DNA of 64,000 nt from Thermomicrobiales bacterium (GTDB lineage Bacteria > Chloroflexota > Chloroflexia > Thermomicrobiales > UBA6265), in contig JAXLWT010000031.1 of the NCBI GenBank assembly GCA_046328375.1, positions 607 to 64,606 on the forward strand, given 5' to 3'. Of this stretch, positions 1-35,867 are shown piece by piece (within the stretch, counting starts at the first letter, position 1; each line of letters begins with the position of its first letter). Both the position numbers and the translations under genes were made by a program. Under the pieces are notes generated by a model, which was not told where the DNA came from, did not search any database, and saw only the letters and a list, made by a program, of their open reading frames with translations.

Positions 1-2264
1 GCCTGCACCTGGGGAACGTCACCCGCATGGAGGCGGGCAACGGCGGCTTCGTACGGGTAACCGAGTTCCTCCCAGGCGGTGGCGGCATCCTCCCACGCAC
101 CCCGGAGTTGCATCGCCCAGGGTGGGGCCACGTCCTGATCTGCGACCGGGAGACCGACCTGCTGGGCCAGCCAGCGCAGTTCCCCACGTTGCCAGGGCGT
201 GCCGCGCTCGTCCGCAAGCGTGAGCACGCGGGACAGGGCGGTAGCGGCCGCCTCGTGACGATCGAGCAGGAGGTCTCGCTCTGCCTGCGCTGCGCACACG
301 GGCCCCATACGGATCAACTGCGATGTCCGTTCCGCCAGTCGCCAGCCTTCAGCCAGGGTTGCCTCTGCGGCGGAATCACCTCGCCGCACCTGCATGCGCC
401 CGAGCGCCGTGAGCGCCACGATGCGGGTCAGCGGCGCATGGTCCTGCCGCCTCAGGACACTCCCGGCATCCTGGATGACCTCCTGCCACCGGCCGCGGTG
501 ACATGCCACAAGCGCGCGCAGCGCAATCAGGTAGTGCAGGTACTGGTGCACGTCAAACGCATCGGTGTAGGCCAGCGCCCGCGCAATCTGGACCTCAGCC
601 TCATCAAGCCGCATGTCATCGAGCGCGGCCCAGGCCCGGTTCGCAAGCGCCCGCCCGGCGTGATCGACGAACCCGGCCGCCTGTGCCTCCGTGATGCACC
701 GTTCCAGGGCCGCGACGCCCGCTGCATAGTCACGTCGGGCCAGCGCGGTCGCCAGGTTGATGCGCGCGTGCACAACCGTGCTCGCATCCTCCAGCTTCGT
801 TCCCAGGTGTTGTGCCCGCTCTCCCCACGCGTTAGCGCCCGCATCGTCGTAGGCCAGCATGCAGAGCTGGGCGAGGTTGCTGTACGCCATGGCCAGTTCC
901 AGGCCGGGCGGATGTCGTTCCAGCAGGTGCACGGCGGTGCGTGCTGCCTGTTCGGCATCCGCGCCCCGGCCATCGAACCAGAGGTGCCGCGAAAGCCAGC
1001 GCTGGTTGTCTCCTTGGCGCATCTCATCGCCAAGCTCGGCACTGAGAAGTACGGCCTGTCGCCGCGAGGAGATGGCGGACTCGACCCGGCCGCAGAGCTG
1101 GCTGGCCTCTGCGTGGTTCTCACACAGGGCCGTTCGCGTCTCGGGCGAGGCAGCACCAGCGAAACGCAGGGCCCGCGCGTACTGATCCGCGGCCTCGCGG
1201 TGCGCGTGCCGGGCCATCGCCTGCTTGGCAGCCGTCGTGGCAAATTCCAGCGTCTGAGGACTTCCCGCGGCCTCCGCGAAGTGGGCCAGGCGCGCGACAT
1301 CCGGCTCTCCTCGGGCCAGCAGCGCCTCCAGGACACGACCGTGCAGCAAGCGCCGGCGCAAGGGGGGAATAGCGGCGAGGATGGCTTCGCGAATCAGGTC
1401 ATGCCGAAAGCGCAGATATGGCGTTTGCTCCGGCGCCAGAATCAGGCCATGCAGGATACAGGCGTCAAGTTCATCCGTGACCGGCCCAGCCACCGCCAGG
1501 ACCAGGTCCGGGTCAATGCGGCCGCCGATCACCGCGCAGAGATCCAGCACGCCGCGCGCCTCAGTGCGCAGACGCGCGGCCCGCGCCAGCACGGCGTCCG
1601 TCACGGTCGCGGGAATCTCACCTTCTTCGGCGGAGAGCACCTGGTTGACGAAGAACGGATTCCCGCCGGTCAACTGGTACAACTCGTCCAGGTCCCGGCC
1701 GGAGTTGACCGCCAGTTGGCCAACTCCCTCCCGGCTGAGCGGAGCCAGGGAGAGCCGCGGAGCCACTCCACTACTTGCCAGATCGCCCAGCATCAGGCGC
1801 AGGGGGTGATCCGGCCCCAGTTCGTCATCGCGGTAGGTGATGACGAACAGGACTGGCACCTGCGCGGCACGTCGCGCCATGAAGCGCAGGAACTCCAGCG
1901 AGATGCTGTCAGCCCACTGCGCGTCTTCACCGATGATGATGGTTGGGCCGGACCGGCTACGGAGCGCCTCCAGCACCGCATGGAAGACCTCTTCGCCGCG
2001 TGCCTGCGCCAGGTCAAGAGTCAGGCCCAGGGCAGGAGCAAGGTCACGTGTAGGACCGACCGGGGTCGGGGTCGAGGTCGCCTCGCATGAGGCCCGCAAC
2101 ACGGTGGCACGTTTGGCTGCGCGCTCGGCAAAGGTCTGCACGAGTGCGCTCTTGCCCACCCCCGCCTCGCCGCCCACCATGACCAACCGGCCATGTCCAC
2201 GCACGGCTGCCTGCAGGTGTTCTTCCAGCAGCGCCAACTCTGGCGCGCGTTCCAGCAATTCCAC
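1..2264 (-). CDS. Large P-loop NTPase (AAA/STAND) plus helical/TPR regulator-like protein with LuxR/MalT-like architecture. The 3' end runs off the window, so any C-terminal HTH is not visible.
   Basis: It is absent from the ORF track because it runs off the window edge. My reverse-complement translation from GTG 2264 reads VELLERAPELALLEEHLQAAVRGHGRLVMVGGEAGVGKSALVQTF (Walker A). It stays open to nt 1, ending ...AWEELGYPYEAAVARLHAGDVPQVQA. The + strand ORF 27..2090 is its antisense shadow. Confidence 0.8.
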   Translation of the reverse strand, partial: MELLERAPELALLEEHLQAAVRGHGRLVMVGGEAGVGKSALVQTFAERAAKRATVLRASCEATSTPTPVGPTRDLAPALGLTLDLAQARGEEVFHAVLEALRSRSGPTIIIGEDAQWADSISLEFLRFMARRAAQVPVLFVITYRDDELGPDHPLRLMLGDLASSGVAPRLSLAPLSREGVGQLAVNSGRDLDELYQLTGGNPFFVNQVLSAEEGEIPATVTDAVLARAARLRTEARGVLDLCAVIGGRIDPDLVLAVAGPVTDELDACILHGLILAPEQTPYLRFRHDLIREAILAAIPPLRRRLLHGRVLEALLARGEPDVARLAHFAEAAGSPQTLEFATTAAKQAMARHAHREAADQYARALRFAGAASPETRTALCENHAEASQLCGRVESAISSRRQAVLLSAELGDEMRQGDNQRWLSRHLWFDGRGADAEQAARTAVHLLERHPPGLELAMAYSNLAQLCMLAYDDAGANAWGERAQHLGTKLEDASTVVHARINLATALARRDYAAGVAALERCITEAQAAGFVDHAGRALANRAWAALDDMRLDEAEVQIARALAYTDAFDVHQYLHYLIALRALVACHRGRWQEVIQDAGSVLRRQDHAPLTRIVALTALGRMQVRRGDSAAEATLAEGWRLAERTSQLIRMGPVCAAQAERDLLLDRHEAAATALSRVLTLADERGTPWQRGELRWLAQQVGLPVADQDVAPPWAMQLRGAWEDAATAWEELGYPYEAAVARLHAGDVPQVQ

Positions 2265-7040: not shown

Positions 7041-9155
7041 TCATCGTGAATGGCTAAAGACCTGATCTCGCGCGTGCTCTGGCTGCGCCCGGGAGGCCAG
7101 TACCACTTCTACCCGCGCGTCGTGGAAATCTCCGCCGCCCCCCGCATCGCTCAGTCCGTCCGGCGTGAGCAGGTTGGCGGACACGCCGCCGGGACTGCGT
7201 GAGGCCCACCAGCCAGAGGGCATCGACACCACCCCAGGAATCACGGCATCCCCGAGCGTCACCCGCAGCGAGAGCTGCCCCTGCGCGTTGCCGACCTGCA
7301 CCCAGTCGTCATCCTCGATGCCGCGAGGCGCGGCGTCCGCCGGGTGCATGAGCAGGCGCGGTTCCTTCTCCGCCTTGAGGTGGCGCGGGAGGTTGGCGAA
7401 GCTTGAGTTCAGGAAGTGCAGCGCGGACTTGGCGCTGATCAACGTCAGTGGGTACGCAACCGCGTCCTCACCACCCGCCGGGACGTAGCCAGGGAGCGGA
7501 TCTCCGCCAGCCGCAGCCAATGTCTCGGAGAAGAACTCCGCACGGCCCGACGGGGTCGGGAAGCCACCCTCCGCGTACGGCACCCACGGGTCGGGGATGT
7601 TCAGCTTCGCCCAACCTTCCTCGTGCAGGCGCTCCCAGGTAATCCCCTCCAGCCACGGATCGTCGCTGTCCAGCACATCGCGGATGATCTGCTCGTCGCT
7701 CGTCTGGAGGTACTCCTCGTGCAGGCCCATGCGCGCAGCCAGGCGACGGAAGACCTCTGTTGTCGGCACGCTCTCGCCCAGCGGCGCGATGGCCGGCTGG
7801 TTGAGCGTCAGGTACGGATGGCCCCAGGCGCCGACCAGGTCGTAGTGCTCCAACTGGGTCGTGGCGGGAAGCACGTAATCCGCGTAGCGAGCCGTGTCAG
7901 TCAGGAATTGCTCGTGCACGACGGTGAACAGATCATCGCGTTGCAGGCCACGCGCCAGAAGGGCCTGGTTGGGGATGGTCGCCATCGGGTTGGCGCCGTA
8001 GACAACCAGGGCGCGTACGGGCGGGTCAAGCGTGGGGTCGGTCAGGATTCGACCGAGTTGCACCATGTTCAACTGCCGGATCGATGCGTTCTCCAGCTCC
8101 GGCATGGTGGCAGTGGCGGAGTTCAGCGCCTGGCGATGCAGCCGGGAGGTCATGTAGGCCAGGCCGCCACCATGATCGCGCCAGGCGCCGGTGAGCGCGG
8201 GCAGGCAGGCAATGGCCCGGTACATGCCCGCGCCGTTGGCGTGGTGCTCCATGCCGACCAGCAGGCGAATCGCCGCCGGGCGCGTGGTGGCGTAGGCGTG
8301 GGCCAATTGCTCGATATCCGCGGCCGGGATGCCAGTGATGGCCGCCACGCGCTCCAGGGGATACTGCGCCAGGCGCTGACGCAGGTCCTCGAACCCGGTC
8401 GTGAACCGCTCGATGTACGCCGGATCGTGCAATCCGTTGTCAATGATGACGCGCATCATGCCGAGGGCCAGCGCGCCATCGGTGCCGGGTCGCGGCTGCA
8501 GGTGCCAATCCGCGGCGGCGGCGGAACGCGTGCGCACCGGATCGATCGCGACAACCGTCGCGCCGTTCTCCCGCGCCTTGCGGATGAGCGGCCAGACGTG
8601 CAGGTTGGTGACGATGGGGTTGGCGCCCCAGAGGATGATGTAGCGGCTCTGCTCCAGATCCTGGGGCAGCATTCCCGTATTCGTACCGTTGACGGCAGCC
8701 ACTCCGGCACCGCCGGCGCCGCCACAGATGGCCCGCTCCAGGCGCGAGGCCCCGATGCGCGCGAAGAAGCGGCGGTCGAGGCTGCCTCCCTGCACGATCC
8801 CCATGGTGCCGAGGTAGCTGAAGGGCAGGATGCTGGTGGCGTCCTCGGCCATCACCCCGCTCAAGCGGCCGGCGATCTCACCCAGCGCGTCGTCCCAGCT
8901 CACGCGCTCGAACTCGCCCGCGCCTTTCGCTCCCGTGCGGCGCAGCGGGTAGCGGAGGCGCTCCTCGCTGTAGACCCGCTCCAGGTAGGGATTCACCTTG
9001 GCGCAGAGGCCGCCCCGCGTCAGGGGGTGCCCGGCATCACCGGCCAGCTTCACCGCCACGCCATCCTGCACGGTCACCTGCCAGGCGCAGGAATCGGGGC
9101 AATCGTGGGCGCAACCACCGCGAACGATGTGAGCAGTGGGGAGGAGATCAGCCAT
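7041..9155 (-). CDS. Molybdopterin (bis-MGD) oxidoreductase catalytic subunit, MopB superfamily
   Basis: 704-aa ORF. It has an N-terminal Cys cluster (GGCAHDCPDSCAW...GGLCAKV), molybdopterin-binding regions and a C-terminal beta-barrel region (MHPADAAPRGIEDDDWVQVGN). Confidence 0.9.
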   Translation of the reverse strand: MADLLPTAHIVRGGCAHDCPDSCAWQVTVQDGVAVKLAGDAGHPLTRGGLCAKVNPYLERVYSEERLRYPLRRTGAKGAGEFERVSWDDALGEIAGRLSGVMAEDATSILPFSYLGTMGIVQGGSLDRRFFARIGASRLERAICGGAGGAGVAAVNGTNTGMLPQDLEQSRYIILWGANPIVTNLHVWPLIRKARENGATVVAIDPVRTRSAAAADWHLQPRPGTDGALALGMMRVIIDNGLHDPAYIERFTTGFEDLRQRLAQYPLERVAAITGIPAADIEQLAHAYATTRPAAIRLLVGMEHHANGAGMYRAIACLPALTGAWRDHGGGLAYMTSRLHRQALNSATATMPELENASIRQLNMVQLGRILTDPTLDPPVRALVVYGANPMATIPNQALLARGLQRDDLFTVVHEQFLTDTARYADYVLPATTQLEHYDLVGAWGHPYLTLNQPAIAPLGESVPTTEVFRRLAARMGLHEEYLQTSDEQIIRDVLDSDDPWLEGITWERLHEEGWAKLNIPDPWVPYAEGGFPTPSGRAEFFSETLAAAGGDPLPGYVPAGGEDAVAYPLTLISAKSALHFLNSSFANLPRHLKAEKEPRLLMHPADAAPRGIEDDDWVQVGNAQGQLSLRVTLGDAVIPGVVSMPSGWWASRSPGGVSANLLTPDGLSDAGGGGDFHDARVEVVLASRAQPEHARDQVFSHSR

Positions 9156-9225
9156 CGGAGAGTCACCTGCTTGTCTGCTAACGGAGAGCCGGGAGAATAC
9201 TCGGCGCGTACCGGCGGTTGGGACG

Positions 9226-9759
9226 TCATGCCGGCTGCTGAGCGCGCTTGCCGATCTCTTCCATCAAGTCCCAGCAACTGGCTGCCGCATTCATCGTCAG
9301 CAGGAATACGACCGCCACCAACCAGTCGAGGACACCGGCCTCCCCCTGCCAGATGCCAAGCGCCAGGTAGAGGGAGACCGCATACGCCAGCGTCGGGGAG
9401 ATGACCCGGGTGAGCGCGTTGCGCCCACTCCAGGCGGGGTCAGGATCAGTGCGCGCCACCCGGACATCGCGCGCAATGCGCAACAAGCCCTGCAGGCCTA
9501 CGATCACCAGGGTAATCAGGAGCGTGGTGCCGTAGTCGGAAGGGACGAGAGCGGCCAGCCCCAGGATGACCAGCACCAGGAGGCTGTGGAACGTCTGCCG
9601 GGTCAGCACCCGCATGCCAGCGTGCGTCGTGTCCGCCATGATGGCCGGGTTGAGGCCGATCACGACGAACAGGAGACCGACGAGCGTCCCGGCGACGGCA
9701 GAGACCGCCGCGAAGAAGTCGTGCCATTCCAGCAGTGCGGTGGCCACCGGGTCGGTCAT
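9226..9759 (-). CDS. Integral membrane protein of unknown function (about 5 TM helices)
   Basis: The profile is hydrophobic (VAGTLVGLLFVVIGL, LLVLVILGLAALV, LLITLVIVGL, ...). I preferred ATG 9759 (MTDPV) because GGAAAGG lies upstream. ATG 9783 is an alternative. Confidence 0.6.
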   Translation of the reverse strand: MTDPVATALLEWHDFFAAVSAVAGTLVGLLFVVIGLNPAIMADTTHAGMRVLTRQTFHSLLVLVILGLAALVPSDYGTTLLITLVIVGLQGLLRIARDVRVARTDPDPAWSGRNALTRVISPTLAYAVSLYLALGIWQGEAGVLDWLVAVVFLLTMNAAASCWDLMEEIGKRAQQPA

Positions 9760-9831
9760 GCTCCGCCTTTCCTGAGCCAACATCTCGCCGGCGCGGACGG
9801 CACTCGCCGGCCACGTGTTCCTGACACAGAC

Positions 9832-10884: not shown

Positions 10885-11058
10885 ATGAACGTGCTTCGCA
10901 ATCTGATCAACCGCATGAGTGGCAGTGGCAGCGCCCGCTTCGAGCGCTACTACGGTGACATCGCCCACGAGGGTGTTGGTTACCCGACCGCTGACGAAGC
11001 CCGCCGGGACATGCTGCGGCACGACGCCGCGGTGAACCGCTATGGCTGGGTCCGCTAA
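10885..11058 (+). CDS. Small hypothetical protein (57 aa)
   Basis: Translation is MNVLRNLINRMSGSGSARFERYYGDIAHEGVGYPTADEARRDMLRHDAAVNRYGWVR. A strong SD (GAGAGGAGG) lies 5 nt before the ATG. The gene sits between its own promoter and terminator. Confidence 0.6.
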   Translation: MNVLRNLINRMSGSGSARFERYYGDIAHEGVGYPTADEARRDMLRHDAAVNRYGWVR

Positions 11059-11097
11059 TGCGGGGCCGAACACCCCGCGTTCGGATATCTGATTGAT

Positions 11098-11136
11098 ACG
11101 GCCCCTGATCGCAAGAACAGGGGCCGTACTGTTTCT
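11098..11136 (+). terminator. Rho-independent-type terminator hairpin
   Basis: ACGGCCCCTG, a 10-nt loop, CAGGGGCCGT, followed by the T-rich stretch actgtttct. A smaller hairpin (GCGGGG...CCCCGC, 11060-11078) precedes it. Confidence 0.6.
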
Positions 11137-11250
11137 CCCTGGCAAACCACCCGCAGCAGGCGGCACGCGGCCGGTCTCCCCTCGGAGCCCCGAGTTTCCC
11201 TCGCAGACCACGTACCTGTGGAACCCTCGTTCGTTTTGCTGATTCGCTCC

Positions 11251-11273
11251 GGAATCCGTATTTCTACGGATTC
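11251..11273 (+). promoter_or_regulatory. Conserved quasi-palindromic box upstream of a Cys-rich Tat-protein gene (copy 1)
   Basis: The box is GGAATCCGTATTTCTACGGATTC, a perfect 9-bp inverted repeat (GAATCCGTA / TACGGATTC) with spacer tttc. It begins 87 nt before GTG 11338. It matches 35401..35422 at 19 of 22 positions. Confidence 0.5.
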
Positions 11274-11337
11274 GGTGGCGTGCGAAAACCGCTAACGTGC
11301 CAACTGAGGAACGACGTCGGTCACCAGGGAGGCTCGT

Positions 11338-11832
11338 GTGGAATCAGATCGCTTTGACACCCTTGCGCGGCATGTTGCACCCCATCTCTCCCGCCGCGGC
11401 TTGACCGGGTTGGCCCTGTTGGCGCTGGCCAGTTTTGGCATGGCCAGCGAAACCGATGCTCGCAAGAAGCGCAAGAAGCACAAGCGGAAGAACAAGGGCA
11501 CGAAGTGCACGGGGTGCACGGCCTGCCAGTCATGCGTGAATGGCGTATGCCAACCGTCGGCAGACGGACTCGCCTGCGGGAGATCGGGCGTCTGCATCAA
11601 TGGCTTCTGCAGCCTGGCGTGCGATCCGAACGGTGATGGCTGCGCCGGCAGTGCCGGCTGCATGACACGCAAGTCGGAGGATGGCAGCGTGTGCGTACCT
11701 GCCTCGGGTGACCCATGCTTCAACACAGAATGTGATGACGATGCCGATTGCCCACAGGGGCAGGCGTGCGTCTCCACAATCTGCATCGATTTCACGACAG
11801 GGCACTGCGCTCCGGTCATCGCCGCAGGGTGA
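11338..11832 (+). CDS. Small secreted Cys-rich protein: Tat signal plus polybasic run plus an 18-Cys domain (family member P1)
   Basis: GTG start with GGGAGG 5 nt upstream. The signal region is MESDRFDTLARHVAPHLSRRGLTGLALLALASFGMASETDA, then RKKRKKHKRKNKGTK, then CTGCTACQSCVNGVCQP...GQACVSTIC.... Confidence 0.8.
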   Translation: MESDRFDTLARHVAPHLSRRGLTGLALLALASFGMASETDARKKRKKHKRKNKGTKCTGCTACQSCVNGVCQPSADGLACGRSGVCINGFCSLACDPNGDGCAGSAGCMTRKSEDGSVCVPASGDPCFNTECDDDADCPQGQACVSTICIDFTTGHCAPVIAAG

Positions 11833-11870
11833 TCAATCACCTCGCTCACTGACGAGGCCCGCACACGAAC

Positions 11871-11900
11871 GGACCGGGCAGGTGAGTACCTGCCCGGTCC
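11871..11900. terminator. Bidirectional terminator hairpin between convergent genes
   Basis: GGACCGGGCAGGT, loop gagt, ACCTGCCCGGTCC (13-bp perfect stem). It lies between the stops at 11832 (+) and 11928 (-). Confidence 0.6.
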
Positions 11901-11927
11901 GATGCTGCGCGGAGAGTCGTCTCAGCG

Positions 11928-12470
11928 TTACTCGGGGACGCAGATCACGTAGGTGGTGACCTCGAATGTCCAGGGCGTCGTGATGAACTCCACCACAGTT
12001 GTCCAGCCCACTGGCACGTCATCACCGTTCAGGTCTGGATAGGTCGACCGAACACGGGCAAATGTCGTGACGGACGTTCCTTCATACCCTCCACCGGTGG
12101 CAACATAGCCGCTCGGGCAACTCGCAGTGCACCCGTCTGTCGCGCCGTCTGACCCTGGTGGGGTTCCATCCGGGAAGGAGCAGGTCTGCCGCTCCACGAT
12201 GATACTGGCGCCCGCCGGAGGCCCATCAGGCCCGGTCGGCCCGCTTGGTCCACTTGGGCCATTTGGCCCCTCAGGACCCTTCTTGCCGCGCCGGCCCCGT
12301 CGCCCGCGCCGTCGCCGCCACCGCTCCGAGTGGGCTTCATCCTTCTTGGCCTCGGCGTTGCCCGCCAGGGCCAGCCCGCCAGCGGCGGCGGCCACACCCA
12401 GCGCCAATCGCCGGGTGGTCACCCCAGCCGCCAGGCGGCTCAGTTCCTCCAGGCGCGATTCATCAAGCAC
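11928..12470 (-). CDS. Secreted protein: Tat signal plus Arg/Lys-rich run plus a collagen-like GPx run plus a Cys-containing beta-rich domain (family member P2)
   Basis: I preferred GTG 12470 because GCAGGAG lies 6 nt upstream. This gives VLDESRLEELSRLAAGVTTRRLALGVAAAAGGLALAGNAEA, then KKDEAHSERWRRRRGRRGRRGKKG, then PEGPNGPSGPSGPTGPDGPP. The track start, TTG 12506, adds 12 aa. Confidence 0.75.
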   Translation of the reverse strand: MLDESRLEELSRLAAGVTTRRLALGVAAAAGGLALAGNAEAKKDEAHSERWRRRRGRRGRRGKKGPEGPNGPSGPSGPTGPDGPPAGASIIVERQTCSFPDGTPPGSDGATDGCTASCPSGYVATGGGYEGTSVTTFARVRSTYPDLNGDDVPVGWTTVVEFITTPWTFEVTTYVICVPE

Positions 12471-12656
12471 GCCACAATCTCCTGCCCCGTCATCAGGGGA
12501 CTCCAACGCTGCCAGGGCAGCGCTGCCTGCCCCGCCTGCCTACTCTACGGCATATGAGTTCACTGCGTGCACAGGATGAACGGAACGTCAAGTTTTCAGG
12601 ACCACTGTATGTCACCAGTGGCACAGTTTCATGCAAGAACAGGCCGCGCTCGGAAC

Positions 12657-14306
12657 CTAGGCGCTCTCGTCCTCCGGTTCATTCAGGACGCTCGCCACTT
12701 CCTGCGCGGCCCGCGCGCCCGCTCGTGCGGCACCTTCCATGAAGCCCGTGAGACCAAGCGTGCACGCATCTCCCGCGAAGTGGATCCGTCCCTGGGGCAC
12801 CGCCTCGTAGCCACCAAAAGTGGTGACCTGGCCAACGGTGTAGGTCGGGTAACTGCCAAGCAGGTTGGGATCTCCCGCCGGGTAACTCAGCGTCGCCGTC
12901 CCCGTGTAGTGCTCTGTTGCGCCCGGCAAGACCTCTTCCAGCAACGCCAGGAACTGTTCTGCAAACGCGGCGGTCAGCGGCGAGTCCAGGGAGGTTGTGA
13001 ATGGCCCGTCGGGCATGAACCCGGCTCCAATAACGCCTCCGGTGAACAGGTTGATGATGCCAGCCGTTCCAGCCTGCCCCCGGCTGACTTCCCAGGTCGT
13101 CTGGAAGCCAAGGTCCGTGAAGACGAAGCCATTCGCGACGCCGGGCCAGGGCCCGGTGGTACGCCAGAAGCGCTCGTCGAATTGCAGCTGCAGCTTCGCG
13201 TTCGTGCCGTAGCTCAGTTCGCTGATGGCCTGTCGCTTGAGCGGATCAAATGCCGCGTGCACGATGCTCAAGGTGCGCAACACGCTGAACGGGATCGCCA
13301 GGATCACACGGTCGAAGTGCTCCTCGCGGAAACCGGCTTCCGTGGCGAAGGCCAGCGTGACGCCATCCACCTGCTGCGTCACCGCGGTGAGCCGCCAGTT
13401 GGTACGGACCTCGCAGGCAGGAGACGTCGAGGCGACGTACGCGGCAATCGCTTCCGGCAGCCGCTGATTCCCACCCTCGATGTGGTAGCGCTCGTCGGAT
13501 GCCCCCAGGACCTCCGGGTTGTCCGGGTCTGGCTGATCCGCCAGGGGAATGATGAGCGCGAGCGCACTCTGCTCGGAGGTATCGCGTCCGTTCTCGGTGG
13601 TGTACGCCGCATCGAGCAACTTCCCGAGTGGCGAGCCCAGCCCGCCGGGGACAAACTGGTCGATCCACTGGGCGATGCTCATGTGGTCGAACAGGTACGC
13701 CTCGGGCGTGTAGACGTCGTAGCGCGTTTCTGGACCAAATGTTGCCGCCTGCTCCACCGCAATCCGGTAGACCGGCAGGAAATCGCGGTTCGCCTCATCC
13801 TCTGTGTAGTAGTGCCCGTTGAAGAAGTAGGTGTCCTCGGCTTCCGGATCCATCGCCTCCAGGAGATCGACGAGCGGCAGGTCAAAGCGAGCGGCCAACT
13901 CCTGTATGACCGTGTGACCAGTGTCGATGAGTTCGGCACACCATTCGCTTGTCTGGTCATCGGCCCAGGTGGTGGTGTTGGAGTGCATGCGCCCGCCGAT
14001 GCGGTCAGACGCCTCGAAGATCGTGCTGGGGATACCCGCATCGTGGAGAGCCAGCGCTGCGGACAGACCACCGATACCGGCGCCCACGATGCCTACTCTC
14101 GGCGTCCCCGGAACAGGCGTAGCCTGTGCCCGTGCTGAACGCCGCTCCACGCCGCCAAAAAGTGCCAGCCCAGCGGTTGCGCCAGCGCCGGCCAGGACGA
14201 CACGCCGGGAAACTCGCGGGGTGTCTGTGCCCTGGATCTGTGCGTCTGCCATCGCAGCGCGCCTTGCCATTGCGAGCACCGCGCGCATCGCGGTTGATCG
14301 GGCCAT
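12657..14306 (-). CDS. Flavin-containing amine oxidase (monoamine oxidase-like) with a Tat signal
   Basis: ATG 14306 is preceded by AAGGAGGAG. The twin-arginine motif is SRRVVLAGAG. The FAD dinucleotide motif is VGIVGAGIGGLSAALAL...EASDRIGGR. The C-terminus reads IHFAGDA. The upstream 110 aa of the track ORF look non-coding. Confidence 0.9.
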   Translation of the reverse strand: MARSTAMRAVLAMARRAAMADAQIQGTDTPRVSRRVVLAGAGATAGLALFGGVERRSARAQATPVPGTPRVGIVGAGIGGLSAALALHDAGIPSTIFEASDRIGGRMHSNTTTWADDQTSEWCAELIDTGHTVIQELAARFDLPLVDLLEAMDPEAEDTYFFNGHYYTEDEANRDFLPVYRIAVEQAATFGPETRYDVYTPEAYLFDHMSIAQWIDQFVPGGLGSPLGKLLDAAYTTENGRDTSEQSALALIIPLADQPDPDNPEVLGASDERYHIEGGNQRLPEAIAAYVASTSPACEVRTNWRLTAVTQQVDGVTLAFATEAGFREEHFDRVILAIPFSVLRTLSIVHAAFDPLKRQAISELSYGTNAKLQLQFDERFWRTTGPWPGVANGFVFTDLGFQTTWEVSRGQAGTAGIINLFTGGVIGAGFMPDGPFTTSLDSPLTAAFAEQFLALLEEVLPGATEHYTGTATLSYPAGDPNLLGSYPTYTVGQVTTFGGYEAVPQGRIHFAGDACTLGLTGFMEGAARAGARAAQEVASVLNEPEDESA

Positions 14307-22520: not shown

Positions 22521-24098
22521 ATGTCGCATGGCGACGCGAGCTGGCGCAGCAATTTGGTTAGCTCCCGGACATACCATACCCTCGCCACGCTGACCGAGAA
22601 ACTGCCAGTCAGCGCGATACACGGCGATGCCGCCACTGCCATCACTGGCATCACCTGCAGCACCGAGCTTGGCGACGTACAGGCAAGTTCACTCTTTGCG
22701 CCCCTGGATTTGTCATCGCCTCGCACAGCGGCGCTGGCGGCCAAAGCGGTCAGCCGGGGCGCAGCAGCACTTCTCCTTGAGCAAGCGCTGGACATCCCGG
22801 TTCCGCAACTCATTGTCCCGGATGCCCGCTCGGCATTAGCCGTGGTAGCAGCCACCTTCTATTCCCACCCCGCAAACGAGATCACCTGCATTGGCATCAC
22901 CGGCACCGCCGGCAAAACCACGACAACCCTTCTCACGTACGAGATCCTGCGCGCGAGCGGGCTTCGTCCGGGGCTGATCGGTACGCTGGACTGGCGTATT
23001 GGCGACTTCTGGAACCGGCACCGGACGGGTCGCACGACGCCGGAGGCTCCAGACGTGCAGCGCATGTTGCGAGACATGGTTGACGTAGGCGACCAGACGG
23101 CAATCCTGGAAGCCAGTTCCCAGGGACTGGAGCAGCACCGGCTCGATACCGTGCCCTTCAGTATCGGCGCGATGACGCATGTGACCCGGGATCACCTGGA
23201 TTTTCACGGCAGTCTGGGCGCGTATCGCCGCGCCAAGGCGCGCCTCTTTGAACGCCTTGACGGCGTATCCGGCACGGCGGTGCTGAACGCTGATGATCCC
23301 GCCTCACGCCGCATGGCCGAGTACTCGACGGCGGCCCGCATCCTCACCTATAGCGCCGCTGGCCAGGGCGCCGATGTGCGCGCCACGGATATCCGCCCCG
23401 AGAACGAGCACACACGATTCCGGCTTTCACTTGCTGGGTCATCAACGACGATCCAGTTGCCCCTGCCTGGGGCGTTCAACGTGGCGAACGCGCTCTGCGC
23501 TGCCGCTATCGCCCACGCTGCCGAGGTGCCACTGGCCAACATCGCTGCGGGGCTGGCGCAGAGCGCTCCGATTCCGGGGCTCCTGACCACGGTCGAGGCC
23601 GGCCAACCATTCCTCGTCATCATTGATGAGGCCAAGTCTGCCATGGCCCTCGTTCATGCACTGGAAGTCGCCCGACAACGAACGCAACAGGGGCGCATCA
23701 TCGTGGTGGTCAGTGCCTCGGAGCTGGTACGGCCCGACCTGTTGCGGCAAAGAGGGGAAGTTGCCGAACTGGCCGCCGACTACGCGGTGTTCACCACCGC
23801 CCGTGCTCGCTTGGTCGATCCTGCATCGATCGTCGAACACCTTGCAGACGGAGCACGCGCCGCCGGAGGGATCGACGGTGTAACGTACGCCTGTGAACCA
23901 GATCGCCGCAGCGCCATGATCCACGCCCTGGCGCTGGCTCGGCCTGGGGACTGCGTTCTCATCACTGGCAAAGGGATCGAGAGCACCCTCGAGGTGGGAA
24001 GCCTGGTGATTCCATGGGATGACGTCGCCATCGCCCGGCAGATCCTGGCCGAGATGGAGTATCCGCTCGAACCTGGCCGGGGCGAACATCTTGGCTAA
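22521..24098 (+). CDS. Mur ligase family protein. It is MurE-like, with an intact central ATPase domain but atypical N- and C-terminal domains.
   Basis: The central domain retains GITGTAGKTTTT, LEASSQGL, THVTRDHLDFHG and RRAKARLF. The C-terminal domain lacks the canonical MurE strings (see findings). The start is uncertain: ATG 22521 has no good SD, and the track ORF begins at 22470. Confidence 0.8.
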   Translation: MSHGDASWRSNLVSSRTYHTLATLTEKLPVSAIHGDAATAITGITCSTELGDVQASSLFAPLDLSSPRTAALAAKAVSRGAAALLLEQALDIPVPQLIVPDARSALAVVAATFYSHPANEITCIGITGTAGKTTTTLLTYEILRASGLRPGLIGTLDWRIGDFWNRHRTGRTTPEAPDVQRMLRDMVDVGDQTAILEASSQGLEQHRLDTVPFSIGAMTHVTRDHLDFHGSLGAYRRAKARLFERLDGVSGTAVLNADDPASRRMAEYSTAARILTYSAAGQGADVRATDIRPENEHTRFRLSLAGSSTTIQLPLPGAFNVANALCAAAIAHAAEVPLANIAAGLAQSAPIPGLLTTVEAGQPFLVIIDEAKSAMALVHALEVARQRTQQGRIIVVVSASELVRPDLLRQRGEVAELAADYAVFTTARARLVDPASIVEHLADGARAAGGIDGVTYACEPDRRSAMIHALALARPGDCVLITGKGIESTLEVGSLVIPWDDVAIARQILAEMEYPLEPGRGEHLG

Positions 24099-25800
24099 TC
24101 CCCTGCTCGTCTGCCTGTTGCCCGTGCGGAATGGCGAGGCTGATCTGCCAGGGTACCTCGACTCGGTGGCGGTGTTCGGGGACGCCGTCGTCGCGCTTGA
24201 TGACGGTAGCACCGACCGCACCAACGAGATGTTACGGGCTCACCCGCTGGTCAGGATCGTCCTGGAGAATCCACCACGTCCCGACTACGTGGGGTGGGAC
24301 GATGCGGCGAACCGCAACCGGCTGCTGGACGCCGCGGGTGAATTGGCCCCGGCCTGGATCTTGTCGCTGGACGCCGATGAGCGAATCCCGGCGGATGATG
24401 GCAATGCCCTGCGCGCATTTCTCGAAACTGACGCCTTGCCGGGCCTCGGCTATGGATTCCGGGTCTACCGCATGTGGGACGATCTGGAGCGCTATGATCG
24501 CGCGGGCCTGTGGGTGTTCCGCCTCTTTGCCTGGCAGCGTGGGCAACGATTCCCGGATCAGCGCCTCCATTTCGTCCCGCTTCCCACCGATCTGCCGCGT
24601 TCCCGCTGGGTCCGCACCTCGATTCGCATCCAGCACCTGGGTGGGCTGACACCAGCGCGCCGCCAGGACCGCTTCGAGAAGTACCGCCAGGCCGACCCGC
24701 AGAACGAGTTTCAGCACTCGTACCGGGACCTCCTGGAACCCGCGCTCGACGTGCATCCCTGGGAGCCCCGGGCGGCGGATTTACCCATTCTGGATGTGTC
24801 GCCGGAGGCGGTCGAAGCCAGCCTGGACGACGCGGAGCAACCTGAGCTTGACGCGATCACCGATCATCCGGTGCTCTCTGCGGTAATCATCTCCCGCGAT
24901 GATGGTCCTCGCTTGCTGCGCACAGTGCGATCAGTCGTGGAGCAGGAGTCTCCCTGGCCCTTCGAGGTCATCGTGGTGGTCAGCGGCGCTGGCAATGGAG
25001 CGGCACTGGTGCGGGAGCATTTCCCACTGGTCACGGTGGTGGACCTGCCGGGCCCGGCACTCCCGGGTGAGGCGCGCAACGCCGGCTTGCGGGTTGCGCG
25101 TGGCGACTTCGTCTCGTTTCCCGGGTCGCACGTGATCTTGCCGCAGGGCAGCCTGGCGGCGCGGATGCGGGCGCACGACCTCGGCTACGCGATGGTAACT
25201 GGCACCACACTGAATGGCACGCGCACCCCGGCAGGCTGGGCCTCCTACTTCCTCGACCACTCGACGGTGCTGCCAGGACGTCCCTCCGAGGAGTTGCGGA
25301 GTGCGCCGGCGCACTGCTCATACCGCCGCCGCGCGCTGGAGGCGATTGGCGGGTTCCCGGAACACCTGCGCGCCGGCGAAGACACCGTCGTCAACCAGGC
25401 GCTGTCCAAGCGTGGCCACCGGGCATACCGGGCTCAGGATGTCGTCCTGGTCCACCGCAGTCCCTGCCGGACCGTCAAGAAGCTGGTTTCCCATCACTTC
25501 ACTCGCGGCCGCGGCTACGGCCGCATCCTGCGCGAACGTGATGGCATGACCCGACGCGACCTCGTGCGGGCACGTGGACGCCGGCTGCTACGGCAGCAAA
25601 CCGCGGGACGCATGAAAGCAACGACGCAGCAGGTCCGTGCCTGGGGCGGCCTTCACCTGGCCGCTCGATACTTCGTAGTCTTCCCGCTCGTCGTGTTGGG
25701 CTGCCTGTCCTGGACCGCTGGAACCTGGTTCGAGCTAGCTGTCAGTGACACGCCAACCGGAAGCCCGGGAAAAGACTCAAGACCGTCTCTCAGTCTGTGA
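24091..25800 (+). CDS. Two-domain family-2 glycosyltransferase with a C-terminal TM segment
   Basis: Domain 1 reads LLPVRNGEADLPGYL...ALDDGSTDRT...LSLDADE. Domain 2 reads LSAVIISRDDGPRLLRTVRSVVEQ...GEARNAGL. The TM segment is FVVFPLVVLGCLSW. TTG 24091 overlaps the upstream stop by 8 nt. ATG 24019 would overlap by 80 nt. Confidence 0.8.
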   Translation: MANPLLVCLLPVRNGEADLPGYLDSVAVFGDAVVALDDGSTDRTNEMLRAHPLVRIVLENPPRPDYVGWDDAANRNRLLDAAGELAPAWILSLDADERIPADDGNALRAFLETDALPGLGYGFRVYRMWDDLERYDRAGLWVFRLFAWQRGQRFPDQRLHFVPLPTDLPRSRWVRTSIRIQHLGGLTPARRQDRFEKYRQADPQNEFQHSYRDLLEPALDVHPWEPRAADLPILDVSPEAVEASLDDAEQPELDAITDHPVLSAVIISRDDGPRLLRTVRSVVEQESPWPFEVIVVVSGAGNGAALVREHFPLVTVVDLPGPALPGEARNAGLRVARGDFVSFPGSHVILPQGSLAARMRAHDLGYAMVTGTTLNGTRTPAGWASYFLDHSTVLPGRPSEELRSAPAHCSYRRRALEAIGGFPEHLRAGEDTVVNQALSKRGHRAYRAQDVVLVHRSPCRTVKKLVSHHFTRGRGYGRILRERDGMTRRDLVRARGRRLLRQQTAGRMKATTQQVRAWGGLHLAARYFVVFPLVVLGCLSWTAGTWFELAVSDTPTGSPGKDSRPSLSL

Positions 25801-25849: not shown

Positions 25850-26152
25850 CTAGTGCTTCCCTTTGTGCTTCTTCCGTCGACGCTTTTTGCGCTTGCCATC
25901 CGTCGTGCTGCCGCCGGGAGCACTGGGGGGTTTGGGAGGGCTGCAATACAGTTCATAGAGTTCTGGCGGCAAGTTCGGCTGGCATTGATCACCGCTGCCG
26001 CTGCCACCGTCACCGGCAGCCACCGGCTGCAGCGCCACCGCGTATGACGCCGCCACCCCTCCGGACACGCCCAGTGCCATCAGCCCCTGGACGAACGTGC
26101 GGCGATTGATCTTGTTGGCGATATACGCATCGATGAGTTCGTGCTGGGACAA
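25850..26152 (-). CDS. Small Tat-signal protein with a C-terminal polybasic tail (family member P4, permuted architecture)
   Basis: I preferred TTG 26152 because GAGGAGA lies 5 nt upstream. This gives (L)SQHELIDAYIANKINRRTFVQGLMALGVSGGVAASYAVA...CQPNLPPELYELYC...DGKRKKRRRKKHKGKH. The track start, GTG 26203, has no SD. Confidence 0.65.
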   Translation of the reverse strand: MSQHELIDAYIANKINRRTFVQGLMALGVSGGVAASYAVALQPVAAGDGGSGSGDQCQPNLPPELYELYCSPPKPPSAPGGSTTDGKRKKRRRKKHKGKH

Positions 26153-26424
26153 TTGCGTCTCCTCGCCTGAAAGCAACGAGGTCCACTGTAGCGGATTTGC
26201 CACAAAAAGCTAGTCCCGGCGGAATGTCCGCGCTCGCATGCCCCTAACGGGCAATCACACCACGCTACAGCGCGCAGCCATGGCCTCACGGGAAGGTTCA
26301 CCGGTGTGTCGCCAGTGCGCAAGACACATCGCGGCTCGTACAATCCGGGAGCGCGCTGTGGCATTCGCCCGCCCGCCGCCGCTCTCCTGCCCGGCCAACG
26401 ACTCATCCGTAGGCTGCATACCGC

Positions 26425-35400: not shown

Positions 35401-35422
35401 GGAATGCGTACTTCTACGGATG
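35401..35422 (+). promoter_or_regulatory. Conserved quasi-palindromic box upstream of a Cys-rich Tat-protein gene (copy 2)
   Basis: The box is GGAATGCGTACTTCTACGGATG. It begins 86 nt before GTG 35487. It matches 11251..11272 at 19 of 22 positions. Confidence 0.5.
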
Positions 35423-35486
35423 TCCTGATCTGCGCTCATCGTTAGCCTGACGTTCAGGCAGTCGTTCCACTTTCTAGGAGGCCACC

Positions 35487-35867
35487 GTGGATGCAGACCA
35501 CCTCGAGGCACTCGTCGCCCGTCTCAACCCACGGCTGAGCCGCCGTCACAGCCTGGGTTTGATCGGTGTGTTTGGCATAGCGAGCGCGGGCCTCGGCATG
35601 GAAGCCCACGCCAAAAAGAACAAGAGGAAGCACCCACGTCGCTGCTTCATGGTCGGCTACGCCTTCTGCGTTGACGGTGAGACGGTCATCGTCAACTCAT
35701 GTGGGAGGAAGAGGTTGCTCAAGCGCGGCGAGACGCCTGGCCGGTGCCCCGACACTTGCGTTCCCCAGTGTGCGGATTGCGCCGCGGGTGACGATGGCTG
35801 TGGCGGCACGTGCGGTTGCCCAACTGGCCAGGTCTGCGTGGAGGCCACCTGCCAGCCAGTTCCGTGA
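35487..35867 (+). CDS. Small secreted Cys-rich protein: Tat signal plus polybasic run plus a 12-Cys domain (family member P3)
   Basis: GTG start with AGGAGG 5 nt upstream. The signal region is MDADHLEALVARLNPRLSRRHSLGLIGVFGIASAGLGMEAHA, then KKNKRKHPRR, then CFMVGYAFC...CADCAAGDDGCGGTCGCPTGQVCVEATCQP. Confidence 0.8.
   Translation: MDADHLEALVARLNPRLSRRHSLGLIGVFGIASAGLGMEAHAKKNKRKHPRRCFMVGYAFCVDGETVIVNSCGRKRLLKRGETPGRCPDTCVPQCADCAAGDDGCGGTCGCPTGQVCVEATCQPVP

Follow-up and report, generated by a model that had tools for sequence, protein, structure and literature searches.

A candidate Tat-type leader followed by a polybasic tract precedes cysteine-rich and collagen-like proteins of Thermomicrobiales

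Introduction

Unfolded proteins are normally rejected by the Tat pathway, and the Tat signals of TorA and DmsA are bound by dedicated chaperones. For unfolded, reduced cargo, the only Tat export known to us is that of artificial substrates in E. coli. The pathway passes small unstructured hydrophilic polypeptides of about 100–120 aa (PMC6708511), and it is the usual route of cofactor-bearing proteins (PMC7317946). Sec avoidance is achieved by basic residues in the c-region or the early mature domain, and many positive charges behind a weak helix block Sec (PMC7317946). The final transmembrane helix of the actinobacterial Rieske protein is described as Tat-dependent in the summary that this source gives (Tooke et al. 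2017, summarised in PMC7317946).

Here we analyse a leader of this general kind, its polybasic tract and the proteins that carry both, starting from a 64 kb stretch of DNA (the window). The reading that we favour on balance is that these proteins would be exported by a Tat-type signal and cleaved, that their polybasic tails would hold them on the anionic envelope, and that their cysteines would form disulfides outside the cell.

Results

Genes and family membership in the window

The initial annotation of this locus proposed a convergent pair of small exported proteins as the core of a four-member family. Both open reading frames of the pair are present: P1 (11338..11832, + strand, GTG start, 164 aa) and P2 (11928..12470, − strand, GTG start, 180 aa). 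The two other proposed members, and a hairpin between the convergent genes, are as follows:

11859..11912, no strand assigned: intergenic hairpin with 25-nt arms, 84% complementary, and a perfect 14-bp core
25850..26203, − strand: P4, a small separate protein that has an ordinary Tat-like signal (NRRTFVQGL) and ends in a basic tail
35487..35867, + strand: P3, by sequence a P1 paralog, in which the same leader precedes the basic tract KKNKRKHPRR and a body with 12 Cys

P1, P2 and P3 are under purifying selection, with dN/dS between orthologs of 0.29, 0.26 and 0.19–0.38, respectively, and are therefore real genes; their GC3 is raised, and the coding conservation in relatives that had been proposed as a check is borne out by the dN/dS values. 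The GC3 of P4 is coding-like, and look-ups of the exact P2 and P4 products returned no database record.

The proposed family of four holds for P1 and P3. P3 reads as a true paralog of P1; BLASTP aligns their first 52 residues at E = 1e-9. P2 shares the leader type alone, its best pairwise BLASTP match to P1 (E = 0.29) not being significant. P4 is not a member of the P1/P3 family: it scores 6.4 bits against the 40-aa leader HMM described below, its spacing before RR differs and its basic run lies at the C-terminus. Ordinary Tat-like signals are also found on other proteins of the window, and this signal type is therefore common in the genome; no TatA-like ORF or tat genes lie within the 64 kb.

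The pairing of P1 and P2 could not be upheld as the core of a family. Two Thermomicrobiales MAGs keep a P2 homolog together with its neighbours and have no adjoining P1-like gene, and we therefore rejected P1/P2 as a functional pair. At locus L008 the gap beside the P2 homolog is too short for a P1-like gene, and at locus L007 the corresponding slot holds unrelated ORFs only. The hairpin between P1 and P2 is a probable bidirectional terminator; it has no T-run, which is why a simple terminator scan misses it, and a promoter and terminator consensus scan of positions 11000–12700 made no call.

A leader-defined protein family

P1 has the build that had been described for it, with RR at residues 19–20, an ETDA site followed by RKKRKKHKRKNKGTK, and 18 Cys in a 123-aa mature part:

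11327..11332, + strand: Shine–Dalgarno sequence GGGAGG of P1, kept in the 68%-identical ortholog locus despite diverged flanks
11338..11460, + strand: P1 leader, residues 1–41, with the putative pre-RR helix MESDRFDTLARHV, SRR at 18–20, the h-region and the ETDA site
11461..11505, + strand: P1 polybasic tract RKKRKKHKRKNKGTK, net charge +11
11506..11832, + strand: acidic, putatively disulfide-rich P1 body and stop codon, 18 Cys, pI 4.05

The P3 body ends in CPxGQxCVxxxC, a motif shared with P1. A 40-aa HMM covering the leader only, with the motif M-D/E-x-x-R-F-D-x-L-x-R-x-L and RR at residues 19–20, scores P1 at 43.6 bits and P3 at 33.1 bits. In a profile search (E <= 1e-3) the P1/P3 family comprised 246 representatives at 50% clustering; in nearly all alignments query and target both start at residue 1. 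The taxon labels retrieved are without exception those of Thermomicrobiales or Chloroflexia MAGs, and one MAG supplies three matches.

The family n-region has a fixed length of 18 residues, is net acidic and follows the consensus M-D/E-x-D/E-R-F-D-x-L-x-R-x-L, in which F6 is kept in 131/150 and D7 in 132/150 representatives and R11 and L13 are also conserved. This 18-residue pre-RR extension is probably helical; for the P1 leader, AF2 predicts a helix at residues 2–17 with low confidence. S/T-R-R occupies residues 18–20, and the c-region before the small-x-Ala site is acidic. Straight after the site comes a Lys-rich tract of 7–19 residues (median 12 aa, K:R = 3:1), which is followed by Pro/Thr-rich linkers; the first 30 mature residues have a net charge of +11. 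One family member at locus L030 has the leader without the basic tract, so leader and tract are separable.

The module precedes varied and usually disulfide-rich cargo, including Cys-rich repeats, NHL propellers, beta-helices and STIG1-like repeats. When P1–P4 and 44 members were scanned against Pfam and NCBIfam, neither the leader nor the tract nor the P1/P3 bodies could be assigned to a family, in keeping with the earlier statement that P1–P4 belong to no named family, and single members match MXAN_6577-like and Stig1 models. A literature search found no description of an RFD-leader/poly-Lys family. The idea that these are RiPP precursors was dropped because the cargo domains are large and varied. 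We consider it rather probable that the P1/P3 family and the leader-sharing P2 are lineage-specific exported proteins built on one N-terminal module. The leader variant is common to hundreds of uncharacterised proteins and may mark a lineage-specific route for exporting and retaining surface proteins.

P2 joins the leader to a collagen-like run and a beta-sandwich head

The order of parts that had been assigned to P2 is likewise present, namely RR at residues 20–21, AEA, a basic run, a collagen-like run and a Cys-containing beta domain:

12348..12470, − strand: P2 leader, residues 1–41, MLDESRLEELSRL, with TTRR at 18–21, an Ala/Gly h-region and the AEA site
12216..12305, − strand: P2 collagen-like run, residues 56–85, ten G-X-Y triplets by direct reading
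11931..12203, − strand: P2 C-terminal head, residues 90–180, modelled as a six-strand beta-sandwich, with 4 conserved Cys

The triplets are uninterrupted (GRR GRR GKK GPE GPN GPS GPS GPT GPD GPP), and what had been called the basic run is the first three of them, GRR GRR GKK, in register with the collagen-like run. The run scores 20.1 bits against Pfam Collagen (PF01391, cut-off 27.2), and the P2 homologs P0011 and P0014 have a precomputed PF01391 match. RRLA is invariant in 16 P2 homologs. Against the P1-type leader HMM the P2 leader is borderline (7.9–12.4 bits), and a P2 homolog from Sphaerobacteraceae has a clear P1-type leader at 24 bits; P1 and P2 therefore share a leader type although their mature proteins are unrelated, and the P2 leader appears to be a divergent copy of the P1-type leader.

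The head is modelled by AF2 with a pLDDT of about 90 over residues 91–179. Conserved copies occur in about 30 homologs and also in long collagen-like proteins of actinobacteria. It has no Pfam match, and a Foldseek search of its fold returned no significant hit (best E 0.16 against the PDB and 0.009 against BFVD), the weak structural matches including H-type lectins and tail-fibre tips.

Opposed charges in the predicted mature P1

Mature P1 (123 aa, GRAVY −0.28) is without a hydrophobic stretch and sets a +11 tail against a −9 body of pI 4. An alignment of 34 family members has 13 invariant and 5 nearly invariant Cys columns, and the P1 body has a dN/dS of about 0.18. The structure model of P1 is poor (pLDDT 46, from a nine-row alignment), and its C-terminus scores 16.4 bits against DUF7107 (PF23416), below the 24.6-bit Pfam cut-off.

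Given the same export route, the mature products could instead be secreted cationic, disulfide-stabilised peptides of an antimicrobial or toxin-like (defensin-like) kind, with the tail attacking anionic target membranes. The shortest members (P0085, P0090, P0126 and P0132, precursors of 85–92 aa) would yield highly cationic 8-Cys peptides of 45–50 aa that resemble defensins. Paralogs are numerous, clustered and variable, with eight within 14 kb at locus L030, and P1 itself sits in a variable slot, which related genomes leave empty or fill differently. We nonetheless judge a peptide toxin unlikely. The tail-plus-knot is joined in many members to large NHL, beta-helix and other domains, which do not suit such a function, and the P1 body is strongly acidic (pI 4.05). 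Moreover, dN/dS values of 0.2–0.4 carry no arms-race signal, and no immunity-like or transporter genes are conserved beside P1 or P3.

Mostly even cysteine counts

The number of Cys in the mature part is even in 99/116 members (85%, p = 3e-15). P1 has 18 and its ortholog 16, exactly two having been lost; the count is 12 throughout the P3 family and 4 throughout the P2 family. The commonest counts in the family, 18 and 20, are not all multiples of four, and 18, 14 and 10 are frequent. Profile matches in the PDB are weak and are to disulfide mini-proteins only: the knottin-type Evasin-3 (E = 8.6e-4), Dumpy and scytovirin. Because the counts are mostly even, because two Cys were lost together, because the totals are not multiples of four and because the likeness is to knottins and scytovirin, the cysteines most likely represent disulfides formed outside the cell.

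This pattern bears directly on the initial annotation, which had argued for cytoplasmic loading of a cofactor or metal. Tat would then be used because the Cys-rich domain takes up its metal or cofactor and folds while still in the cytoplasm. Tat is indeed the usual route of cofactor-bearing proteins (PMC7317946), and the mature P1 body opens with CxxCxxCxxC. The fourth and fifth Cys of that P1 stretch are, however, deleted in the 68% ortholog, an even parity in which 18, 14 and 10 are frequent totals suits pairs and not four-ligand sites, and the likeness is to disulfide knottins. No Fe-S or metal-binding family was matched in P1–P4 or the 44 members (Pfam, NCBIfam), and the same leader bears collagen-like, NHL and beta-helix cargo that needs no cofactor. 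Cofactor loading before export is thus very improbable.

The export signal

The RR pair is invariant in 148/148 aligned representatives, each from a separate 50%-identity cluster, and is never K although the adjoining tract is three-quarters lysine; it is invariant too in the P2 and P3 ortholog alignments. S/T stands directly before RR in 132/150. The family consensus after RR is G/R-L/V-L-G, in which hydrophobic residues are present, without the F or the K of the canonical x-F-L-K. The uncharged h-region is 17 residues long at the median (25% Leu, 22% Gly and 21% Ala), and the predicted cleavage site has Ala at position −1 in 105/138 and Ala/Thr/Val at −3 in 104/138. The Tat signal originally claimed draws support from the invariant RR, the preceding S/T, the short Gly/Ala-rich h-region and the conserved −3/−1 site, and a Tat-type signal is the best reading of the leader that these features allow. 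Pfam TAT_signal (PF10518) and TIGR01409 gave no match to P1, P2 or P3 at E <= 1; P4 matches the curated Tat models weakly (E = 0.065–0.079).

A reduced 18-Cys domain is not folded. The unusual folding route that had been suggested for it is nevertheless not required, because Tat passes small unstructured hydrophilic polypeptides of about 100–120 aa (PMC6708511). The suggestion that the polybasic tail may anchor the protein to an anionic surface is reasonable, and Sec avoidance (PMC7317946) would be a simpler, established role for it.

Could the leaders be ordinary Sec signals of a high-GC organism, with RR and the extension inherited in a recently expanded paralog family and devoid of targeting meaning? 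Tat HMMs do give no match, leaders are kept by descent in paralog families, and the dN/dS of the leader exceeds that of the mature part. We give this account very little credence, since Sec cannot translocate a chain with at least 10 positive charges right behind the cleavage site (PMC7317946), K never replaces RR in the 148 representatives even though lysine dominates the tract, and the leader is retained before unrelated cargo, that of P2 included. An uncleaved N-out/C-in membrane anchor, with the tract and Cys-rich domain in the cytoplasm as, for example, zinc-binding modules, would follow from the positive-inside rule, by which the charge distribution alone (a net charge of about +1 to +2 N-terminal and about +7 to +11 C-terminal to the helix) would predict a topology opposite to the exported one, but it is barely credible for a short (median 17 residues), Gly/Ala-rich helix that ends in a conserved −3/−1 cleavage motif, whose RR would need to cross the membrane, and which precedes cargo domains and Pro/Thr linkers of extracytoplasmic type, an even number of Cys and a collagen stalk with a lectin-like head unexpected in the cytoplasm.

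A palindromic box upstream of P1 and P3

Upstream boxes had been assigned to both P1 and P2:

11251..11273, + strand: P1 promoter-proximal palindromic box GGAATCCGTA-TTTC-TACGGATTC, by direct reading
11293..11298, + strand: −10-like hexamer TAACGT (TAnnnT), 21 nt past the box
12538..12556, − strand: stretch upstream of P2, CCGTA-GAG-TAGG on the P2 strand, not significant against the box
35401..35423, + strand: GGAATGCGTACTTCTACGGAT, the other copy of the box, 86 nt ahead of P3

The P1 box stands and recurs before P3, whereas the supposed degenerate copy before P2 is not a significant match; the latter stretch shows moderate conservation between about −70 and −85 relative to the start in the orthologs at L007 and L008. 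The P1 box contains a perfect 9-bp inverted repeat, GAATCCGTA-N4-TACGGATTC, at 11252–11273, and its conserved core is AATNCGTAYWYCTACGGAT (11253–11271). A 21-mer of the box occurs only before P1 and P3 in the 64 kb, where 0 such pairs are expected by chance. The box precedes every P1 and P3 ortholog fetched (11 loci), and other small exported proteins have it upstream at loci ranging from 38% to 70% GC.

In six aligned P1/P3 upstream regions, the T, the A and the final T of the hexamer are invariant at fixed spacing, and low-GC metagenome loci have TATTAT or TATATT at its position and TTGAC directly 3' of the box. A standard sigma-70 scan finds no promoter at TAACGT, and its assignment as a −10 element is putative. 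The box itself reads as a promoter-proximal regulator site that abuts the −35 position of P1 and P3. A variable base in its left arm is never compensated in the right arm, so the box would act as a DNA site and an RNA hairpin was rejected; Rfam searches of the P1 upstream region (by E-value) and of the whole window (at the gathering threshold) found no RNA family. An ECF-sigma site was dropped, there being no CGT at the right spacing. A direct repeat of the OmpR type is a possible fit to the commonest form of the box, but for the P1 and P3 copies the palindrome is the better fit.

Discussion

In the mechanism that we propose, the precursor would be targeted to TatBC through its RR motif. The polybasic tract at the mature start would make Sec translocation impossible, an extreme form of Sec avoidance in which an established principle is extended to the tract. 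The small, hydrophilic and still-reduced cargo would then pass Tat, signal peptidase I would cut after the conserved Ala, and the cysteines would pair into disulfides outside the cell, as the sequence statistics indicate. The released protein would be a charge dipole whose tail most probably holds it on an anionic component of the envelope; Thermomicrobiales are probably monoderm. In P2, the same leader would deliver a mini-collagen, its basic residues opening a ten-triplet G-X-Y stalk topped by a lectin-like beta-sandwich head. The palindromic site abutting the −35 of their promoters would co-regulate P1 and P3 and leave out P2.

A bolder interpretation, which we think rather unlikely, is that the pre-RR helix and the poly-Lys tract form the sorting signal of an undescribed, lineage-specific surface-protein pathway. 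A dedicated chaperone or processing enzyme could take hold of the helix, in the manner of TorD/NapD-type signal binders or of YSIRK-type routing, the lysine tract could fix the cargo to the envelope, electrostatically or covalently, and the promoter box could bring part of the set into a single envelope regulon.

Should the favoured reading of Tat-type export and envelope retention be true, Thermomicrobiales, an under-studied order, would have a recognisable address label on many surface or secreted proteins. Such a label is searchable; it could define the exported proteome in metagenomes and be tested as an export tag. The leader would represent a natural extreme of the Sec-avoidance principle, and natural handling by Tat of small, unfolded, disulfide-destined cargo would bear on the strictness of Tat folding proofreading. 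The conserved pre-RR helix predicts a binding partner, and the shared promoter box a widely conserved regulator.

The closest described systems are Tat signals of the SRRxFLK type, such as E. coli TorA and SufI. The family leader resembles them in S/T-R-R with an invariant arginine pair, in the weakly hydrophobic Gly/Ala-rich h-region and AxA-type site, in positive charge at the junction of c-region and mature part, and, as in TorA and DmsA, in a long n-region. It differs in that the n-region is not variable but a fixed-length, sequence-conserved, net-acidic predicted helix (F6, D7, R11, L13), that the c-region is acidic, and that the avoidance charge lies in the mature protein as a 7–19-residue poly-Lys/Arg tract; the residues after RR are not x-F-L-K, and standard Tat HMMs miss the leader. 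The Rieske helix, as summarised in PMC7317946, is similar in its RR, its low hydrophobicity and the C-side positive charges that halt Sec and hand the domain to Tat. In that summary it is the internal, uncleaved anchor of a cofactor protein, whereas the family helix is N-terminal, has a cleavage motif and precedes disulfide-rich or other cofactor-free cargo.

With the YSIRK/G-S signals of Gram-positive surface proteins, the family has in common an n-region motif that marks a subset of surface proteins. Its retention before unrelated cargo suggests that the conserved motif serves in sorting and not in export alone. Motif, lineage and export route differ (YSIRK signals use Sec) and YSIRK proteins are without a polybasic tract, so the likeness is one of analogy. 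P2 resembles Scl1/Scl2, BclA and Lcl, bacterial collagen-like proteins that bear a globular head, in its export signal, uninterrupted G-X-Y run and C-terminal beta-sandwich head. Unlike them, it has ten triplets only, a Tat-type leader, no LPXTG or other known anchor, and a head without a Pfam family or significant structural match, and it scores far below the cut-offs of the Scl and Lcl models. Finally, Evasin-3, scytovirin, the Cys-rich repeats of Myxococcus and STIG1-like repeats share with P1 and P3 dense, even-numbered Cys and the C-x-x-G-x-C beta-hairpin spacing, with weak profile matches. P1 and P3 reach no curated cut-off for these small disulfide-rich modules, and the P1-type arrangement of 16–18 Cys is a conserved pattern of its own.

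Four candidate genes for exported proteins

The initial annotation had grouped four small exported-type proteins, P1–P4, into one family. Their genes lie in a window of ~66% G+C at the following positions:

P1, 11338..11832, plus strand: GTG start, 164 residues
P2, 11928..12470, minus strand: GTG start, 180 residues, convergent with P1
Hairpin between the convergent P1 and P2, 11859-11912
P4, 25850..26203, minus strand: 117 residues
P3, 35487..35867, plus strand: 126 residues

Third-position G+C (GC3) is raised in all four. Among orthologs, dN/dS was 0.29 for P1, 0.26 for P2 and 0.19–0.38 for P3, demonstrating that purifying selection acts on all three as protein-coding genes and settling, for them, the coding check that the initial annotation had named. 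Reading both convergent ORFs recovered every residue-level feature described for them: P1 possesses RR at residues 19-20, ETDA, RKKRKKHKRKNKGTK and 18 Cys in a 123-residue mature part, while in P2 RR (residues 20-21) and AEA are followed by a basic run, triplets rich in GP and a C-terminal part that contains Cys. Near-identical P1+P2 loci are present in two JGI metagenomes, and relatives of P2 in two Thermomicrobiales MAGs and one Sphaerobacteraceae MAG; family members named at NCBI are all annotated as ‘hypothetical protein’ and derive from Thermomicrobiales or Chloroflexia MAGs. Elsewhere in the window, ARAGORN calls a 97-nt tRNA-Trp at 861-957 (plus strand); because Rfam, searched at gathering thresholds, reports no tRNA for any part of the window, this call is probably false, or the tRNA unusual.

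A common leader module precedes divergent cargo

The first 52 residues are common to P1 and P3 (BLASTP E = 1e-9), as is a C-terminal CPxGQxCVxxxC motif; pairwise comparison with P1 returned no significant similarity for P2 or P4. While a word-based search detected 2 relatives for P1, 5 for P3 and ~30 for P2, an exhaustive profile search with the P1 alignment detected 246 representatives at E ≤ 1e-3. Nearly all of these align from residue 1 of both query and target, with one N-terminal module in common and divergent downstream parts. The cargo types behind the module are:

P1-like bodies with 16-20 Cys
Short 8-Cys knots
STIG1-like and Myxococcus-like Cys repeats
NHL propellers
Right-handed beta-helices
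Domains without family assignment

A single MAG supplies three of the profile matches, and one 14-kb metagenome stretch (L030; JAESGR010000582.1, 125-13658) holds eight paralogs with the module. One of these, an 836-residue protein with STIG1-like repeats, retains the leader and lacks the basic tract; the paralog cluster adjoins a murE-like gene and a glycosyltransferase gene orthologous to window 24019-25800. In scans of P1–P4 and of sampled family members, no Pfam or NCBIfam model was found to cover the module, and no description of the family was found in the literature, consistent with the earlier remark that no named family was recognizable.

Scoring with a 40-residue leader-only HMM yielded 43.6 bits for P1, 33.1 for P3 and 7.9–12.4 for P2; P4, at 6.4 bits, was rejected as a family member. 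The Sphaerobacteraceae homolog of P2, with the N-terminus MDRPRFEGVTRLMAQLGTRR, scores 24 bits, which argues that the P2 leader is a diverged copy of the P1-type leader. The initial observation was largely right, with the family trimmed to P1 and P3, plus the leader-sharing P2. Downstream (3′) of the 68%-identical P1 ortholog in two related loci (L003 1105-1188 and L004 1091-1174), a gene opens with a leader, MDARHFDALTRVFSAAGTRRRLL, of the type bearing the Arg5-Phe6-Asp7 (RFD) motif; members therefore lie in tandem there, and not as a P1/P2 pair.

Composition of the leader module over 150 representatives
M1: 132/150
D/E at position 2: 129/150
R5: 83/150
F6: 131/150
D7: 132/150
L9: 85/150
R11: 102/150
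L13: 100/150
S/T at position 18: 132/150
R19 and R20: 148/148 aligned
Net charge of the pre-RR segment: median -1
Uncharged stretch after RR: median 17 residues; 25% Leu, 22% Gly, 21% Ala
Position -1 before the basic tract: Ala in 105/138
Position -3 before the basic tract: Ala/Thr/Val in 104/138
Positions -2 and -4 before the basic tract: commonly Asp/Glu
Basic tract: median 12 residues (range 7-19), K:R ~3:1
Net charge over the first 30 mature residues: +11

A short Pro/Thr-rich linker often follows the basic tract. Ordinary Tat-like signals elsewhere in the window possess neither the RFD helix nor the basic tract, as in these examples:

Near 44200, dioxygenase-like ORF
Ending near 53866, a further ORF

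The flavin amine oxidase gene beside P2 (12657-14636, minus strand) is a further example; its ordinary Tat-like signal, VSRRVVLAGAGATAGLALFG, lies well inside the longest ORF, so that translation probably begins far 3′ of the first ATG.

P2 as a candidate mini collagen-like protein

The ‘basic run’ of P2, RGRRGRRGKKG, keeps the register of the GPx triplets, and the two combine into ten uninterrupted G-X-Y triplets. Residues 91-179 are predicted to form a six-strand beta-sandwich (pLDDT ~90), and this head and the triplets recur in much longer actinobacterial collagen-like proteins, such as a 413-residue Sinosporangium protein (Pfam Collagen match, 4.8e-24). Fold searches with the head yielded nothing significant; their weak hits repeatedly include H-type lectins and phage tail-fibre tips. 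Given the triplets, the modelled head and the longer relatives, P2 is best described as a putative mini collagen-like protein with a possibly sugar-binding head; its leader is of the P1 kind, but the protein that follows is a different one.

In two related MAGs (L007 and L008), the P2 homolog keeps an FmdA/AmdA-type amidase gene and a conserved 57-residue ORF as neighbours without a P1-like gene beside it; the gap in L008 is too short for one, and the slot in L007 holds unrelated ORFs only. On these two MAGs, the P1/P2 convergence was hence rejected as a conserved unit and is taken as a local accident. The 57-residue ORF (MNVLRNLINRMSGSGSARFERYYGD..., window 10888-11058, plus strand), to which no family was assigned, adjoins the amidase gene in the window and in L001, L002, L007 and L008. 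In the Thermomicrobiales MAG L008, the P2 homolog is followed ~2.4 kb further downstream by a CRISPR array (8937-9779) in which the 37-nt repeat GTTTCAATCCCCACCCGCCCCGAGAGGCGGGTGCAAC occurs ~12 times.

Cysteine statistics and charge layout of the mature proteins

Of 116 members, 99 have an even Cys number in the mature part (binomial p = 3e-15). P1 possesses 18 Cys and its 68% ortholog 16, an 8-residue deletion removing exactly two; the count is 12 throughout the P3 family and 4 throughout the P2 family. The commonest counts (18, 20, 8, 16 and 14) are not limited to multiples of four. In a profile built from 34 P1-like proteins, 13 Cys columns are invariant and a further 5 nearly so; against PDB sequences, this profile matches small disulfide proteins only, all weakly, namely Evasin-3 (E = 8.6e-4), Dumpy and scytovirin. 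No Fe-S or metal-binding family matched the family members scanned. Taken together, Cys parity, column conservation, the disulfide-protein matches and the lack of an Fe-S or metal family lead us to conclude that the cysteine-rich cargo are, as judged from sequence, disulfide-rich extracytoplasmic modules; the same findings leave unsupported the cofactor or metal loading that had been proposed for them.

Mature P1 joins a +11 tail to a body of net charge -9 and pI 4.05, a layout that P2 and P3 repeat in milder form. This arrangement fits a tail that would bind an anionic partner with the body pointing away. P4 and a few large family members carry C-terminal basic tails instead, which hints that, besides Sec avoidance, the tails serve a purpose once the protein is mature; exported proteins of this lineage may habitually carry a basic tail at one end or the other. 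P4 itself (25850-26203, minus strand) possesses a canonical-looking Tat motif, NRRTFVQGL, two Cys and the C-terminal tail GKRKKRRRKKHKGKH.

A palindromic box upstream of P1 and P3

The perfect 9-bp inverted repeat reported before P1 was read directly from the sequence:

11252-11273, box before P1: GAATCCGTA-TTTC-TACGGATTC

The window contains a 21-nt version at two sites and no more (0 expected by chance): one ends up upstream of P1, 87 nt from its start, the other upstream of P3, 86 nt from its start. The core, AATNCGTAYWYCTACGGAT, lies 5′ of every P1 and P3 ortholog retrieved (11 loci) as a conserved island in diverged surrounding DNA. One base of the left arm varies (C, G or A) and is never compensated in the invariant right arm, which argues for a protein-binding DNA site; an RNA stem was rejected on this ground. 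An Rfam search of the P1 upstream region returned no match.

A TAnnnT hexamer follows the box at a fixed 21 nt. Querying metagenome contigs for the 19-nt box, 21 nt and TAnnnT retrieved 18 loci of 38-70% G+C, relative to a rough expectation of ~1 for a collection whose size is known only approximately. Where G+C is low, TTGAC, which was outside the query, comes immediately after the box, then 17 nt and TATTAT or TATATT, and this spacing places the box at a predicted -35 to -54, approximately. Among the downstream genes are those for three more leader-family proteins, which start at +81 to +84; others, small and unrelated, encode Lys/Glu-rich proteins with a Sec signal, a lipoprotein and a small ORF, MERLSPMELRVKSLVEEFF..., that is probably leaderless. 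The box-bearing loci are L020-L037 (for example L020, complement of 2278-2323; also L026, L031, L036, L021 and L025). We read the box as a putative site of a widely conserved regulator, overlapping the -35 region, and P1 and P3 as candidate members of one regulon.

The supposed degenerate copy before P2 has no significant match to the box, yet is moderately conserved among P2 orthologs, suggesting that P2 is probably under its own control elements. Conserved blocks, GTGAYATNCAGTGGTSCTGAAA and CATNTGNCGTARAGTRG, are present upstream of P2 (window 12560-12640 and 12480-12530, with L007/L008 equivalents), together with a small GGGCA...TGCCC hairpin that differs in its loop from one ortholog to another; the blocks and hairpin may be such elements.

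Export route and comparison with known systems

Short Pfam and TIGRFAM Tat models did not match P1–P3. The best-supported mechanism, which we consider fairly probable, is Tat-type export of disulfide-rich proteins with an extreme Sec-avoidance and retention tail, in line with the Tat signal proposed initially. Four features support it: RR is never replaced by Lys in 148 representatives (separate 50%-identity clusters), though the adjacent tract is mostly Lys; S/T directly precedes RR; the h-region is short, Gly/Ala-rich and weakly hydrophobic; and the polybasic mature start is, in extreme form, an established Sec-avoidance feature (PMC7317946). Many positive charges after a weakly hydrophobic helix cause Sec to release the segment (PMC7317946). 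The RR leader would direct Tat-type export while the polybasic start enforced Sec avoidance; signal peptidase would then cleave at the conserved -3/-1 site, and the lysine tail would retain the protein. E. coli Tat exports unstructured hydrophilic polypeptides of 100-120 residues unless a hydrophobic stretch is present (PMC6708511), which softens the apparent conflict with Tat proofreading; mature P1 has 123 residues, a GRAVY of -0.28 and no hydrophobic window.

A minor alternative is a permanent membrane anchor of reverse topology in place of a cleaved signal, since the positive-inside rule alone would give the topology opposite to export; the conserved -3/-1 pattern speaks for signal-peptidase cleavage instead, and the cargo types and cysteine statistics are likewise at odds with an anchor.

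For Tat-type export, the module can be likened in working mode to a Tat signal with Sec avoidance, and its arrangement resembles the RR, weak helix and many positive charges of actinobacterial Rieske proteins. In concept it would parallel YSIRK signals, in which a motif-bearing signal is common to unrelated surface cargo. The module differs from all three by its fixed, conserved, acidic pre-RR helix, its acidic c-region and its long lysine tract.
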